A DNA stretch of 64,000 nucleotides, taken from positions 121,396,001-121,460,000 of the forward strand of contig OX597815.1 of the NCBI GenBank assembly GCA_951406725.2, written 5' to 3'. Position 1 is the stretch's first letter. Every line of letters starts with the position of its first letter. Position numbers and translations under genes: made by a program. The stretch is from Octopus vulgaris (lineage: Eukaryota). The notes under the pieces are model-generated. The model was not told where the DNA came from, did not search any database, and was given only the letters and a program-made list of their open reading frames with translations. Positions 3,515-62,195 of this stretch are shown one piece after another.

Positions 3515-3567
<53 letters not shown>

Positions 3568-4005
3568 CTCGTTTTTCCAGCATTCATAATCTTCACATCG
3601 TCTTGACTTAACATCCCTCACCGTTTGTCTTTACTGTTTTGTTCTCACTGTCCTGTTTTTGTTACCACTTTCACTCCCCACAAAAAAATCTCAAATTTTA
3701 TTTAATTTGCTTTGCGGGAAGGACTGTTTCAACGTCATTACCTTCGAAACACAGAGTAGAAAAAACAGGGGACAACTGATGATGGTAATGTTCTTTATGT
3801 TGCATGTCTTGTTTCTCTGATCGTTTTTTTTTCGTTGTTCGAAAAAAGGTTCGTTTTCTATGTTTTTGATTTTTATGTTTTCATTTCTCATTGTGTCTAC
3901 GCTTTTTTGATTTCCTGTATCCATACGTGCATGTATATATACATACATATGTAGGTATGTACATATATGTATGAATGTATGCATATATCTATATATTATT
4001 TATAT

Positions 4006-10775: not shown

Positions 10776-10823
<48 letters not shown>

Positions 10824-10959
10824 TACTTGGAGGAAACGAAACGACGCAAGGACGCTCAGTCATACAATAATTTAATAAATAAAATATATGCATACATACA
10901 TACATATATGTACGTACCTACATCTACATGTATATATACATGCATATATAAATATATAT

Positions 10960-11480
10960 ACGTGAGTACAGGACACCACAAATAGACGTAGATTTCAACG
11001 AGAAACGAAAACGTAAAAACAAACATGGAAACGGACCTTTTTTTAACAACGAAAAAACGGAGTACAAGACAAACAACACAAGGAAAATTCCCCTTCATCA
11101 GCTGTCCCTAGTTCGACTCCATGCGTGTTTCGAAGGTGAGGACAGAACACGACTCGTCGAACTAACCCTTCCTGCGAAAGAATTAAATAAAATTCCTTTG
11201 CAGAGGAGTAAAAACAAGGAAAGAAAAAAATGTGACAAAAACAGGACGTAAAAACGATACAAATAAAATAACAAAATAAAATACAAAATAAAAATACAAT
11301 TACAAAAAAATACAGTACAAGAAATAAAAACAAACAATGAGGGCCTATTTTGGCCTAGACGAGGAAAGATTTTTAAGAGCGCAGGAAAAAAGCATGTTCA
11401 CTTGTAGGAGGCCGCAAGCGAAAGGAAGTGGTCGCCCGGCTGTGAGAGAGAGAGAGATGGGGTTGACTCTGTCTGTCATT
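10960..11480 (-). mobile_element. (TA)n-anchored non-coding element (family A)
   Basis: Homologous to 3565-3950 and 19130-19640; runs from a (GA)n end to GTCCTGTACTCACGTATATA on the minus strand. Confidence 0.75.
11088..11164 (-). ncRNA. Candidate hammerhead ribozyme with rearranged strand order
   Basis: Minus strand: TAGTTCGAC gagt CGTGT T CTGTCC tcaccttc GAA ACACG catgga GTCGAACTA g GGACAG CTGATGA aggggaa; core intact, helix III 5 bp, helix I 6 bp, added helix 9 bp. Confidence 0.65.
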
Positions 11481-14414: not shown

Positions 14415-14835
14415 GGATCTTTTCGGTTTGACCGGCAGTTTTTTCTAGCGGCGTCATATGAAATTGTCACCCATAATTATGACCCTAGTATCGATCTAAT
14501 GCATTTCAATCTGTCTTAGGGTTAGAGTTAGGGTTAGGGATGGGGGGAAGGGTATCTTTTTTTCTTTAGAAATGTAAATAAACCCAATCTATTTCTTAAA
14601 CGAGGGACATATTCATACGGCACAGAATGTTTTCACCTCAATAGACGTCATTGATTGGTTGAAATTGCAGAAATTGAAGAAAAAAACAACAAATATCTTT
14701 CAAACTATAGAATTTTCTCAATAAAGCCAAGAGAAAAAGATGTTTTATAAACACATTCTACCAGTATACGAAGTTTAAAAGTGTTTAGTTACGTGGAAAT
14801 TATTTGAAAAAACTGCCGGTCAAAGTGAAAAAACC
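14415..14835 (+). mobile_element. MITE with ~30 bp TIRs and internal TTAGGG repeats
   Basis: GGATCTTTTCGGTTTGACCGGCAGTTTTTT / AAAAAACTGCCGGTCAAAGTGAAAAAACC; TA on both flanks; second copy 39565-40010. Confidence 0.85.
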
Positions 14836-16041: not shown

Positions 16042-17039
16042 TGTATGTATGTATGTATAGATAAAGTTGGTCTGTCAAATTCAACATTGAAGAAATGCTT
16101 TTATTAGTTTTCGTTTACTTTTAATTTGATATAAATTATTTAAAAAGAGCTATTTATATCTCTGATATTCCTTTTATATTTTACTCATTTTTTGCTTTAA
16201 ATCACCAACAGCACAGCTAGCTTTTCACCCACCGAATAATAATTTCCCCCCTTCTCTGGTTATGAATGAATTTGTAAGAATTCCTACCAGTTATTTTGTG
16301 AAGACTAATTCAAAGCATACAGTTTATCTTGTAAAATTTGTAGCAAAAAAAAATCTTTTTCACTTGAGAATATTTATTGAAATGTCGTAGGACATTGACC
16401 GGATTCGTGTTTTATCATTAAATTCTATTTTCCATATTTCACATGTTTGAAATTATGCACTATAAGTATCATTAAATCAACATTTAAAATGCTGAAGCTT
16501 TCAGGTTTAAAAGTTGTTAAAGATAATCTGTGTCATAACTCAAGGACGTAGCGATGATTTCGACCAGTGTGGCGGGTACGTATGTTCTAAATTAAATTGG
16601 ATCCACTTTTAAGCTGCCTAATTTACGAAAAACGCTGAGCTAAAAATATATCAGATGATATATTTACACAGAGCTGCGGTGGTGGTGGCAACAGTGACGT
16701 TAAGTTGTCCGAACTTGTTGACCCCCAGGCTCCGAGGGTGCAATTTAAAGTCACTGAGTAGTTTTGTTGCAAATGAAATTGTTTCCGAATTCGGTGTAAC
16801 CTCAAACAATCTTATTACCACAACATATTAATTTTCTGCTGCAGACTAGTACAATATTAGTCACAGTTTTTTTTCTTTTTTTGTCTCTTGTTTTTCTCTT
16901 TTACGTTAGTTAAATATGACCCTGGCACATATCTCCATTTTGTCTCCACGATATATAATTTTCTTTTCTTTATTTTATCATTAGCAGCTTGTAAGGTTTG
17001 TTTACAACTTGTAAAGTTTCAGCACTCACACATATTATA

Positions 17040-17094
<55 letters not shown>

Positions 17095-17095
<1 letters not shown>

Positions 17096-17590
17096 GGTAT
17101 GTAGAAAAATACAACATGGACAAGAACGTATAACTCTTAGAAGACGATACAATAAACACGGACAGGACATTCGAAACCCTCAGTCTTCAGTCAAGAACCG
17201 GATCATCGTAGTAATTTCGGCTGATTAATCTTGAGATTACTAGATCACGGCCAGCCCTCCAAGAAAAACTAAGCAACGAGCATTAGAAAAACTAAGCTGG
17301 GAGCGTAGATTTCCTGGAAGAAGGATCGAATGCATACGGACACCAGGACAGCAAAAGGGACGAATATAAAAAAACAAAAAATAATGGAATACAGAAACAT
17401 GAAATACAGAAGCATTAACGGTGAAAACAACAACAAGTGTCTTACGACTGATAACAAGCAAACAAATTTTTTCTCTGGCGCAAGGAAAGGAGCCTTATCG
17501 GCGATGCCTATAGCGGCGGACGAAAAACAACGATGTTAACACGACGCTGGTCAGAAGCTGAAAGGCAGATTTCGGCCAGCAGTCACTATG
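17095..17590 (-). mobile_element. (TA)n-anchored non-coding element (family B)
   Basis: Lies between (TA)n and (TG)n; 17095-17220 is homologous to the arms of 61940-62195. Confidence 0.7.
17180..17252 (-). ncRNA. Candidate hammerhead ribozyme with rearranged strand order (family B)
   Basis: Minus strand: GGCCG t GATC TAGTAAT C TCAAGA ttaa TCAG cc GAA ATTACTA cgat GATC CGGT TCTTGA CTGAAGA CTGA. Confidence 0.65.
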
Positions 17591-19051: not shown

Positions 19052-19129
19052 CGCATATTACTCTACCTCTGGTATTTGAGTACTCTTTTTTCCACCTTGT
19101 TTCACATTCATGTACTTACTCCGGTATCA

Positions 19130-20147
19130 ATGAGAGACAGAATGGAAAACAAGACAAATAAACAAAGAGAACGACCCTCCATCAGTTGTCGGCTGTCTGA
19201 GAATTCAACGACAATATGAGTCTTCAAAGACAGTTGCTCTCAAAAATTCCGAAATAAAATTTAGGATTTATGGAGGGTCAAAGTTGGGAACAAAAACAGA
19301 ACAGTGGAGACATACAAGGAAACCGAACGAAAACAAACATGGAGGGTTGTTAGACCAGAATGCGAAGAAAATAGTGAACGCTGGGAGAAATATTTTCTAT
19401 GAAAAGAGAAAAGATAGAAGAGAGAGAGAAAGAAAACGTCCAGCCCTTTGAATGTCCGTGCAGGAAAAGAAAGATGGTCACGCGAGGAAAAGAAAGATGG
19501 TCGATGGTCACGTGTGAGCAACGAGAGAGAGAAAAAGAGAAAGAGGGGGAGAGAGAGAGACAGGTAGAAAACGCTGAAGAGGAGAAAAAGGGAATTAGAG
19601 AAATATGGGAGGAAACAGTACAGAGTAGAGTCACATGAAAAAGGTTAAGATAAACTGACTAGAAAATGGATGCGTTCAATCAAATAATAATATACAAATA
19701 ATATATATCATCCATCTTTCTTTTCCTGCACAGACGTTCAAAGGCCTTGACGTTTTCTTTCTCTCTTTTCTATCGTTTCTCTTTTCAAAGAAAATATTTC
19801 TCCCATGTTCACTATTTTCCTCTCGTTCTGGTCTAACGACCCTCCATGTTTGTTTTCATTCGGTTTCCTTGTATCTCTCCACTGTCCTGTTTTTGTTCCC
19901 AACTTTGACCCTCTGTAAATCCCAAATCTTATTTTAGAGTTTATGGGAGCAACTGTCTTTGATGACTCATATCGTCGTTGAATGCTCCAAATGAGGAGTA
20001 GATAGACAGCCGACAACTGATGGAGGATCGTTCGCTGAGTTTACTTGTCCTGTTTTCCATTTTTTCTCTCGTTGTTAGAGTATTTAACTCGTTTGTTTTT
20101 CGTATTTCATGTTGTTTACACAGTTGATGACGTCCTGTACCCATATA

Positions 20148-38221: not shown

Positions 38222-39246
38222 TGTAACAAATAAATTAGAGTAAGAAAAGTAACGGCTTTGTTTCATTGTTACAAAATAAGAAACAGCTTCGAGTTGTACA
38301 AAGTATTAGTTTTAGTCCAGTAGTCCATTTCGTAGATAGTTAAGTTTATCTGGGAGTGACAGCTAGAAGACGGTTGGAAGAAAGAAAGAGAAAGAGTAAA
38401 AGAATTTACCTCTCTGGACTGACAGGTAGACAGGTTAAAAGTTGTGTAGTTACGCACTGACGATTCATACCAAAGTGCCCCTTTTGTCCAAGGAGCCAAG
38501 CAAAAACTGTAGAACCGAATTTGGCCTAGATCGGGTTAAACAAAAGATTTTTCGTTTGTTATCTGCCTTGATCCAAGTTTGACTTGAAATAGTCACAGTT
38601 TAACAGCTGACTCGCATAAATCTTTTGTTAATATTGAAGAAAACTTTATACTGGGTTTCGAATCTTGGTTAAAAATCTAAGAAGCAATTCGGTACATCCC
38701 TCTTTCATTTAGTGAGTTTGTCGAAAAATGAAAGAAAGAAAATAACAACAATAGGAAAAAATTGCAGATTTGTGCATTATGCGACAATTAAACAATATTC
38801 TGAATTGTGAATGCCGAGTGTATAGGGTTCACAAGGCCAGAAAGATCGTAGGTATCAGGAGAGAGAATGAGGCGATGTATGCGGGAGAGTAGGTACTTAT
38901 TTCAGTGGGTCCCAATAGAGTACAATGCCACTTGTGTCAGAACTTGCAATCTGAGCTTCGTGCAGTCTCGGTTTAGGGGCAATGTTGAATGAGCGTGCGC
39001 GTGATTCAGTAGCATCCTTTCGTTCTGAGCAGCAATTGGAATTAATTAGAATGGAGTGTGGAAAACCATCGGGACCGCAATCCACTGTTCCTGAAATTGA
39101 AATCCTCAACGATGAATCAATCTTGGAGGAATCCTAGAATAACACCAAATTAGCTGAATCACGAGACAAGATTCTTCAGTGGTTGGCATGGCGTTATGAA
39201 TTTATACACGTGCGAAAATTGTAATTCACCATGTTACCTTACTACA
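38222..39246. mobile_element. LTR-like repeat; part recurs at 47135-47280
   Basis: TGTAAC...ACTACA bounds; shared AGTTGTACAAAG...AAGAATTTACCTCTCTGG block. Confidence 0.45.
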
Positions 39247-39415
39247 GATAACTCACACTTACCGGATCTTTTCGGTTTGAACGGCAGTTTTTAACATAAT
39301 TTCTAGGTAACTAAAAAATTTTAAACTTCGTATACTGGTAGAATGTATTTATAAAACATCTTTTTCTCTTTGCTTTATTGAGAAAATTCTATAGCTTGTA
39401 AGATATTTGTTGTTG
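39245..39415 (-). repeat. Perfect 171 bp inverted duplicate of 39859-40029
   Basis: Base-by-base comparison by eye found no mismatch. Confidence 0.9.
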
Positions 39416-39564: not shown

Positions 39565-40010
39565 GGATCTTTTCGGTTTGAACGGCAGTTTTTTTTTTTT
39601 AGCTGTGTCATATGAAATTGTCACCCATAGTTATGACCCTAGTATCGATCTATTGCATTTCATTCTGTTTTAGGGTTAGGGTTAGTTAGGGTTAGGGTTA
39701 GGGTTAGGGGTGGGGGAAGGGTTAGGGATTTTTTTTCTTCACAAATGTAAATAAACCCAATTTGTTTCTTAAACGAGGGAATATTCATACGGCACAGAAT
39801 GTTTTTACCTCAATAGACGTCAGTGATTGGTTGAAATTGCAGAAATTGAAGAAAAAAACAACAACAAATATCTTACAAGCTATAGAATTTTCTCAATAAA
39901 GCAAAGAGAAAAAGATGTTTTATAAATACATTCTACCAGTATACGAAGTTTAAAATTTTTTAGTTACCTAGAAATTATGTTAAAAACTGCCGTTCAAACC
40001 GAAAAGATCC
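39565..40010 (+). mobile_element. MITE with TIRs and internal TTAGGG array (same family as 14415)
   Basis: GGATCTTTTCGGTTTGAACGGCAGTTTTT / AAAAACTGCCGTTCAAACCGAAAAGATCC; TTAGGG repeats 39670-39727. Confidence 0.9.
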
Positions 40011-41073
40011 GGTAAGTGTGAGTTATCTGGAAGCAAGGGCGCAGAAAGTATGGTCTATGTTACATAATTCAAAAAGACATCCGACGTGCGCTGAGTCGGG
40101 AAAAGAGAGCTAAGTAGACAGAGATACGGAAACAAATCAATGAAAGCATGAATATTAGGGTGCATGTGTATAGCTAGATGTAGGCATGCGTGTATGCATG
40201 TATTTATGTATGAACATTGCTTTTTTTAAAAATATAGAATAGCGCAGCAAGGATTAATTAACCCTGCGAAAAATTGCAAATATTTACGAGAAAACATGTA
40301 ACGAAATCCGTGCAAAATGAACAGAGTACGATACGTGTGCATGAAAAATATGCTATGCAAGCTGCCAGAGAAAATGAGACATCATAAAGAAATGTATGCA
40401 CGTGAATTACTCGTTTTCGCAGAATGAATGCCGCTTTAAAATTGAACATAATTGTGTTGTTGGGTAACGAACGTGCCATCATGTAAACAAATAAAAGTTT
40501 GTGTGACGGAAATTATAATTAACAGAACGAAATGAAAAGTAAACAAAAGAAGGAAATAAGGAACGACAAATTTGAATAGATGGAGTGTTCAATGCTTCTC
40601 ATGTGAAACAAAAATCAAGCATGTGTCAAGAAAGAGATTTTTGAGAGTCTATAAGATTCTATTCGCAGAAGGGTCCGTGTAGAATTGTGGAGAAAATTAA
40701 AGATCTGAACTTCGGGACTCGGCTGTCGAAAATGTCGCTTGCAGGTCTCCATAGTTTCTGCTGCGATGTACTTCTGTACAAGACAGGTATTTGTTGGTGC
40801 AGATTCTAAGTGTGGGTTCAAGGGAGATGTAGGCTTGCAGAAATGCAGTCTGGTCGTTCTGCGAGGTGCATCGCTATCGGCCGCATTTTTCAATTTTTAA
40901 TTTTTTTTCGTTGGTAGAACATGTATTGTCGCCTGCTGGAAGCTGAACTCCGGAATTTCGATGAGTAACTGCATTTTTTTTTCCTTACTGATTCACGGAT
41001 TGTAGCCTTGTAGAGACTGTTACAGCAAGTAAAAGGATGCATATACATTTCTTCACGGCAGGATTTAAGGCGA

Positions 41074-61939: not shown

Positions 61940-62195
61940 TATAATACAAAAATGGGACAAGAACGCAAAACATCCGGACAGTTAGGTGATACAAAAATGG
62001 GACAACAAAACATCCAGAAAGACAATACACAGAAAACAAAGACGGGTCAATCGAAGTTTTTTTTTCCTCAGTCAAGTACCAGATTATCTTCGCAATTTCG
62101 GGTGATACTTGACTGAAGAAAGAAAACCTCGAATGACCCGTCCTTGTTTTCTTTGTATCGTCCATCTGGATGTTTTGTTGTCCCAATTTTGTATT
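61940..62195. mobile_element. Foldback of a family-B-like element between (TA)n tracts
   Basis: Arms ~61990-62081 and 62103-62194; partial duplication at 61944-61980; GAAATTGC...ACTTGACTGAAGA as at 17180-17220. Confidence 0.8.

Follow-up and report, generated by a model that had tools for sequence, protein, structure and literature searches.

The 64,000-nucleotide stretch of the Octopus vulgaris genome analyzed here (GenBank assembly GCA_951406725.2, contig OX597815.1, positions 121,396,001 to 121,460,000; hereafter, the window) carries on its minus strand, at 17180-17252, every core motif of a hammerhead ribozyme. These motifs stand in the order cleavage site (S), GAAA (G), and CUGANGA (C), which is noncircular. 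The motif lies within a truncated copy of F1, a noncoding, retrozyme-like mobile element, and a second element family, F2, carries the same arrangement at another site in the window. We consider it fairly probable that the motif is a self-cleaving four-block core, X-S-G-C, whose helix II is formed with an upstream segment, X, and which resides in a noncoding retrozyme that is copied into (TA)n repeats. Judged by its sequence, the motif is a candidate for a new hammerhead topology. The features at the locus, in window coordinates, are as follows.

17252-17256, minus strand: segment X (GGCTG), located 5′ of the cleavage block and proposed to supply the 5′ strand of helix II from G10.1
17243-17251, minus strand: 5′ strand of the extension helix, which stays paired although its letters change (as read in the alignments and not by a tool count)
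17236-17242, minus strand: 3′ strand of helix III, ending in U16.1 and forming 7 bp with 17215-17209
17234-17235, minus strand: predicted cut between C17 (17235) and 17234, after an AUC triplet
17229-17234, minus strand: 3′ strand of helix I (TCAAGA), forming 6 bp with 17196-17191
17219-17223, minus strand: 3′ strand of helix II (CAGCC), ending in C11.1 directly 5′ of GAAA
17209-17218, minus strand: GAAA core (G12 to A15.1; GAAA at 17218-17215) and 5′ strand of helix III
17197-17204, minus strand: 3′ strand of the extension helix
17184-17196, minus strand: 5′ strand of helix I (17196-17191) and CUGAAGA core (17190-17184)
17180-17183, minus strand: CTGA, taken for a helix II strand in an earlier, sequence-only reading of this DNA; it is able to pair with TCAG in F1 alone
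17092-17586, minus strand: 5′-truncated copy of F1, noncoding and retrozyme-like (full unit ∼855 nt)
17032-17091, no strand: (TA)n microsatellite adjoining the 3′ end of F1, the insertion target
11095-11171, minus strand: the four-block motif of family F2, borne by an element that spans about 10810-11451

A Complete Hammerhead Core in a Noncircular Order

The core at 17180-17252 is complete, with CUGAAGA, GAAA, an AUC triplet, and the pair U16.1-A15.1. Helix I has 6 bp, helix III has 7 bp, and helix II, when formed through X, has 5-6 bp with a G-C pair at 10.1-11.1. A descriptor for the S-G-C order matched the window twice (17180-17252 and 11088-11165), compared with 0.01 matches per window in 100 block shuffles, and the skeleton of helices I and III had no match in 40 shuffles of 464 kb. 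A hammerhead descriptor covering all six block orders returned S-G-C alone at both sites, and a classic hammerhead of type I, II, or III was accordingly rejected for 17180-17252. By analogy with the hammerhead core, cleavage is predicted after AUC, between 17235 and 17234; this triplet is described as uncommon in natural hammerheads yet catalytically good (PMC1636495). The F2 motif at the 11088 site has GAAGG as X (11171-11167), U17 at 11146, and CUGAUGA at 11101-11095, and its cleavage triplet is GUU, not AUC.

A search of the window with Rfam at gathering thresholds gave no match, as expected since the order is noncircular. The nested minimum free energy fold of the motif was ordinary (z-score of 0.36), as expected of a double pseudoknot. 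The sequence-only reading had placed the letters and coordinates of helices I and III, GAAA, CUGAAGA, and the extension helix correctly, and it had rightly recognized F1 and F2 (at the 11088 site) as two families that differ in sequence and share the rearranged order; both families proved to be high in copy number. Its prediction of a cut after AUC is likewise supported, by analogy. It did not identify the order as the published type SGC or place the motif within a mobile element. The range that it gave, 17180-17252, is too short, ending 4 nt before the far end of segment X (17256-17252).

Helix II Probably Forms with an Upstream Segment

In 10 of 11 subfamilies, the five bases preceding GAAA pair by Watson-Crick rules with X, starting from G10.1-C11.1 with zero offset, and X itself lies 21-26 nt 5′ of the cut. 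The sequence-only reading had instead formed helix II with the downstream CTGA, leaving a two-base YC offset before GAAA. This register is probably wrong. The 4-bp CTGA/TCAG pairing with its CC offset does exist in F1 (45 of 45 skeleton matches), but as a family-wide helix II it fails, breaking down in four sister subfamilies: a scan for 4 bp with 0-2 inserted bases and 0-2 offset bases recovered a downstream helix in 0 of 15 skeleton matches of the F1c locus set, 0 of 7 of F1d, and 1 of 22 of F1b, the single case being a bystander F2 copy. Across the F2 superfamily, 46% of alignment cells pair in the YC-offset register, equal to shuffles. Since F1 alone allows CTGA to pair with TCAG, CTGA is better seen as a rival or competing strand.

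The letters of X and its partner are GGCTG/CAGCC in F1 and F1b-e and GAAGG/CCTTC in F2, F2b, and F2c. In the F4/F5 consensus, GAGCA/TGCTC replaces GAAGG/CCTTC, with changes on both sides at three of the five pairs and an invariant G10.1-C11.1; the X pairing had been proposed before the F4 and F5 sequences were retrieved. In the F2-superfamily alignment, X pairs in 100% of cells, with these three of five pairs changed on both sides. When partners of the pre-GAAA strand were ranked by energy, X was the best in 12 of 12 representative copies from the 11 subfamilies, reaching at least 5 bp at zero offset in 11 of the 12. We also counted pairings in 94 intact-skeleton copies, which are distinct but related and not independent. 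A 5-bp Watson-Crick X was present in 67 of them (3.2% by chance, with the upstream window shuffled), and a 4-bp Watson-Crick downstream partner was present in 5. In every subfamily but F3, X follows a G, which is itself preceded by a purine. The CAG before the F2 X resembles a splice acceptor, but splicing that joins A9 to X was rejected as an explanation, since F2b and F2c have CGG at this place.

Covariation across Subfamilies

The 11 subfamilies (F1, F1b-e, F2, F2b, F2c, F3, F4, and F5) were obtained by way of bystander copies. F1c is very young, with 13 of 40 scored matches 100% identical. Kept across all 11 are CUGANGA, GAAA, U16.1-A15.1, and a base other than G at position 17. In the old subfamily F2c, GAAA is shortened to GAA in many copies (L195-L208), which may reflect amplification of a lineage with a defective core. 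The extension helix is present in all 11 by the same reading of the alignments, at the place where the type SGC hammerhead (discussed below) joins the far ends of helices I and II. Through it, helices I and II would be linked at their distal ends to the far end of helix III.

Covariation was counted in two superfamily alignments of seven hand-picked rows each. For the F2 superfamily, 98% of the cells of helices I, II (through X), and III are paired, and 11 of 16 pairs show double-sided changes. On the F1 side, F3 included, the whole structure is paired in 96% of cells, with 7 of 14 pairs changed on both sides. None of 500 shuffles matched the observed pairing in either alignment, and slid controls reached 12-55%. 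The pairing of helices I and III is kept across subfamilies with compensatory changes; in helix I, five of six pairs are changed on both sides in both superfamilies, which upholds the earlier suggestion of selection on structure. The covariation offered for that suggestion stands where it is drawn from alignable subfamilies. It does not stand for the 17180 copy against the 11088 copy, as their monomers have no significant BLAST match and cannot be aligned, so that the difference between them is not strict covariation.

We also looked for the motif beyond these families. In 400 kb of arbitrary genome stretches, the strict descriptor found no SGC match, a looser skeleton found two, and BLAST found about a dozen decayed relatives. 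The same stretches (L108, L112, and L132 among them) gave four conventional type I hammerheads, or about one per 100 kb, compared with 0.1 in shuffles; locus L092 is a further example of this type. A gapped pattern specific to F1, which covers one helix II sequence only, matched 1 viral and 20 metagenome sequences. None of the 21 had helices I and III, marking them as chance matches.

The Motif Resides in a High-Copy Noncoding Element

The F1 copy in the window has a fixed 3′ end at 17092, 143 nt past the predicted cut. In the genome (2.8 Gb in 227 contigs), 161 nt around the F1 motif gave 1411 candidates, and 40 of the 40 that were scored were 100% identical; F2 gave 2674 candidates. The 30 F1 loci that we retrieved represent 25 separate insertions; 10 are tandem, with units arranged head to tail, seamless joints, and a unit length of 839-863 nt (738 nt in one case). 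All 25 insertions end at, or within about 6 nt of, a single site and adjoin TA-rich repeats. Their 5′ ends are variable (spans of 222-1912 nt), and a dinucleotide repeat lies at the 5′ flank in 18 of the 25. The ribozyme strand has no ATG-started open reading frame of more than 50 amino acids. F2 is built in the same way, with an optional 3′ tail of ∼50 nt in 9 of 23 insertions (13 are short and 1 is of another kind); the tail was not seen in F1. The ribozyme strand is poor in A and rich in U (15% A and 43% T in the F1 unit L007 857-1711; 18% A and 44% T in F2).

Internal 3′ ends at a fixed site, together with tails, partial tandems, and AT-rich targets, are described as signatures of Penelope-type elements (PMC11167929 and PMC8557442), and animal retrozymes are defined by noncoding tandem units with one hammerhead each (PMC7229834; bioRxiv 10.64898/2026.07.22.740005). 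The traits of F1 are those of Penelope-type retrozymes. Its noncoding units run head to tail with one motif per unit, although this motif is not the type I hammerhead of retrozymes. The elements likewise have the marks of a nonautonomous Penelope-like (Naiad-type) element: the fixed 3′ end, 5′ truncation, partial tandems, the (TA)n target, and, in F2, the tail.

Among sequencing runs recorded as RNA, no carrier of the motif sequence was found. In contigs from four runs that are presumed to be RNA, depth climbs 20- to 60-fold in the bin whose start is the predicted cut, and loose ends begin 0-10 nt past it. Truncated genomic copies explain this rise in depth, and contigs cannot reveal RNA ends, strand, or circles; it is, therefore, not evidence of cutting.

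The window also holds decayed relatives of these elements. Two F4-type copies in inverted orientation (19126-19479, minus strand; 19712-20090, plus strand) account for an inverted repeat at 19199-19379 and 19807-19987. The minus-strand copy has no GAAA block, the core is altered in both, and the arrangement is reminiscent of the inverted 5′ copies reported in Penelope insertions. At 61985-62194 is a fold-back (hairpin) remnant of an F1d-type 3′ end that holds two CUGANGA motifs on opposite strands. A decayed F2c-type copy at 3563-3867 (plus strand) keeps X, GAAA, and CUGAUGA and has lost the cleavage block. Apart from these, a perfect 171-nt inverted repeat (39245-39415 and 39859-40029) encloses 443 nt that include TTAGGG repeats (39670-39727); its arm also matches 14685-14811, and it is possibly a miniature inverted-repeat transposable element. 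Elsewhere in the genome, an unrelated structured stretch (L268, G000:C9:16233059-16233208) ends in GGCC-GAAA shortly before (TA)n and is perhaps another element end.

Relation to Known Hammerheads and Retrozymes

The closest described form is the type SGC hammerhead of Eckert et al. 2023 (PMC10085705), which was shown to cleave and is described there from metatranscriptomes only, with no genome of a known organism. The octopus motif resembles type SGC (HRIMA-1 and variants) in its S-G-C block order, double pseudoknot, full core, short linker between helices I and II, and extra helix that connects these two at their distal ends. In type SGC, however, the 5′ strand of helix II follows CUGANGA (the “block C” assumption), whereas here it lies at the 5′ end. 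Moreover, type SGC is metatranscriptomic, and the present motif occurs in thousands of chromosomal copies of an animal mobile element. An intact block C is not conserved across the subfamilies: a link of 0-2 nt from A9 to the helix II strand can be drawn in F1 with a 2-nt offset and is absent from F1b, F1c, and F1d. We, therefore, describe the motif as one that would work like type SGC without filing it there. In these terms, X-S-G-C is type SGC with its 3′ tail (the helix II strand and one strand of the helix joining I and II) moved to the 5′ end, which leaves the chain open between A9 and G10.1. Eckert et al. took the link between A9 and helix II as unbreakable; their search over six orders, thus, could not return X-S-G-C. 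In the open-licence literature of PMC and bioRxiv, with subscription papers outside this scope, we found no description of a four-block layout or of a noncircular hammerhead in an animal genome. For alternative hammerhead forms, the relevant passage of a late-2026 paper (PMC13725137) cites only Eckert et al. and two others.

Animal retrozymes without long terminal repeats (LTRs) share with F1 the noncoding head-to-tail units with one hammerhead each and the dispersed monomers and dimers (PMC7229834; Li et al. 2026 preprint). The F1 unit is within the reported range of 51-972 bp, and dependence on Penelope-like elements has been proposed for these retrozymes as well. They carry type I hammerheads with a short helix III, whereas the motif here is rearranged and has a helix III of 5-7 bp. 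Penelope-type hammerheads also lie near the 3′ end of their element and tolerate an unpaired base after A9 (PMC4209133). In contrast to the noncircular motif with complete helices found here, they are described as having the circular order C-G-S and almost no helix III and as depending on dimers.

A Probable Link to Naiad Elements

Naiads are reported to target (TA)n (PMC8557442). Like the octopus elements, they show partial tandems, inverted 5′ copies, and an optional 3′ tail; unlike them, Naiads have reverse transcriptase and endonuclease reading frames, which F1 lacks. The Naiad authors report no canonical hammerhead and only “core” or “half core” marks, with half-cores 35-50 nt apart in eight cases. 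We read parts of the consensus file in the supplement of that paper by eye, which gives neither a computed nor a complete count, and found the X-S-G-C fold in at least 10 Naiad consensus records with about 7 distinct sequences. These are Naiad_Ovul, the record preceding it, three from Acropora, and five others that, by file order, belong to a ctenophore or hydrozoan, a cubozoan or neighboring group, and a crustacean. In these records, the fold lies near the 3′ end, its helix letters are unrelated, X forms 4-6 bp from G10.1-C11.1, and helix I has only 2 bp in one record. In the nematode Naiads read in the same file, CUGANGA precedes GAAA. The Naiad_Ovul-type motif has 192 exact matches in the octopus genome and none in a reversed control. 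Its 6-bp X is kept in four of six retrieved copies; one of the others is rearranged, and one is truncated.

X-S-G-C is likely the ribozyme reported missing from Naiads. We lean, if only slightly, toward the broader view that the four-block hammerhead, with its core open at the A9-G10.1 link, represents a seventh topology and is active in Naiads as an ancient, widespread ribozyme, ranging from ctenophores and cnidarians to molluscs and crustaceans.

We also considered which enzyme could mobilize F1 and F2. A young Penelope-type family in the genome has an intact 781-amino acid open reading frame with a reverse transcriptase and, at the C terminus, a GIY-YIG domain, copies ∼98% identical, pseudo-LTRs, and ends at (TA)n (loci L141-L151; e.g., G000:C16:20834001-20842000; L152 is a related 771-amino acid subfamily). 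Its pseudo-LTR contains a minimal hammerhead of type-I-like form in which U3-A8 replaces C3-G8. We rejected this family as the direct parent of F1 and F2, with which it shares no sequence; it is a possible partner in trans.

Weighing of Alternative Readings

Several observations weigh against the four-block reading, and some of those on helix II favor a plain type SGC hammerhead. X forms only 3-4 bp in F3, with a mismatch at 10.1-11.1, and none of the four F3 copies reaches 5 bp. X is also invariant within the F1 superfamily (F1 and F1b-e), so the covariation of helix II rests on the set of changes between F2 and F4/F5 and on families that cannot be aligned. If G-U pairs are allowed, 53 of the 94 copies have a downstream partner of at least 4 bp. 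Such a helix can form with a 2-nt offset in F1 itself and, by eye, in 2 of the 10 Naiad records; with one inserted A, it pairs in 100% of F2-superfamily cells (7 of 7 rows), and a GGCT-like tetramer recurs 5 nt past the core in F1b, F1c, and F1e. The helix II strand could, thus, follow CUGANGA as in type SGC, whose activity is proven (PMC10085705), in one of three registers (CTGA/TCAG with the YC offset, the F2-like inserted A, or GGCT past a 5-nt insert), and X would then compete for pairing and keep the ribozyme inactive until refolding takes place. We regard this as quite unlikely. The downstream register varies by family and is always weaker than X. There is no partner at 0-2 nt in the young F1c and none at all in F1d, the inserted-A helix is largely G-U (17 of 500 shuffles score as high), and only 64% of cells pair in the 5-nt-insert register. 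Furthermore, X begins exactly at C11.1, has an invariant G-C pair, and spares GAAA, a geometry that suggests helix II and not a blocker.

Other difficulties concern activity. Truncation points show no sharp peak at the cut: of 103 bystander matches, 14 begin between −3 and +25 nt, and one (L136) begins exactly at the predicted cut. The open-licence literature yielded no example of an active core with a break between A9 and G10.1. The linkers at the helix junctions, at 0-2 nt, are tight for a monomer. One Penelope hammerhead is reported to cleave only with its protein and to be dispensable for insertion in vitro (PMC11167929), and of nine predicted frog retrozyme dimers, eight failed to cleave (bioRxiv 10.64898/2026.07.22.740005). 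The fold could be real but no longer catalytic, or catalytic only with a protein or partner RNA, and serve mainly as a recognition or pause structure for the reverse transcriptase of the element; or it could be active only as a strand-swapped dimer. We consider this unlikely, although it deserves to be taken seriously; the catalytic set is kept across 11 subfamilies and across phyla, which would be needless for a mere binding site. For the Naiad link, the difficulties are that a Naiad reverse transcriptase was not found 1.25-1.4 kb upstream of any of 10 probed Naiad-motif copies, that cephalopod Naiads are called long inactive (PMC8557442), whereas F1 and F1c are very young, and that the motif of the 781-amino acid family is of a different kind. 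Chance pairing in a repeat family, without any selected structure, is highly improbable. The ordinary folding energy would fit it, and near-identical copies within a family carry no information as counts. Nevertheless, the compensatory changes in three helices largely refute it, and the skeleton's absence from shuffles and the recurrence of the fold in unrelated Naiad sequences also speak against it.

Proposed Mechanism

In the four-block reading, helices I and II and the extension helix would pack side by side, as in type SGC ribozymes, and A9 would keep its sheared pair with G12 though unlinked from G10.1. A hammerhead crystal structure is described as having a sharp backbone turn at G8-A9, with A9 pairing to G12 beside G10.1-C11.1 (PMC11300833). 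Given this turn and the unpaired base tolerated after A9 in Penelope hammerheads, a full break after A9 may be tolerated as well. G12 and the 2′-OH of G8 would catalyze cleavage after AUC, so that transcripts of tandem units would cut themselves into unit RNAs, possibly to be ligated into circles by RtcB. Helices II and III and the extension helix would hold the ends of each unit RNA together, favoring this ligation. A Penelope-type (likely Naiad-type) enzyme would then nick (TA)n, with priming at an internal position fixed 143 nt past the cut. Priming at such a site would produce the fixed 3′ ends, 5′ truncations, and partial tandems.

Significance

The hammerhead is among the most studied of ribozymes. 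Its permutations have been counted as six on the assumption that CUGANGA is inseparable from helix II (PMC10085705). If the four-block reading is true, this assumption is broken by a natural form with covariation, and both the search for ribozymes and their engineering would change, since an RNA could end directly after the core. Noncircular permutations would also move from uncultured metatranscriptomes into animal chromosomes, where they would be present at very high copy. Finally, the motif would give a concrete reason why Naiads looked like the Penelope clade that lacks a hammerhead (PMC8557442).
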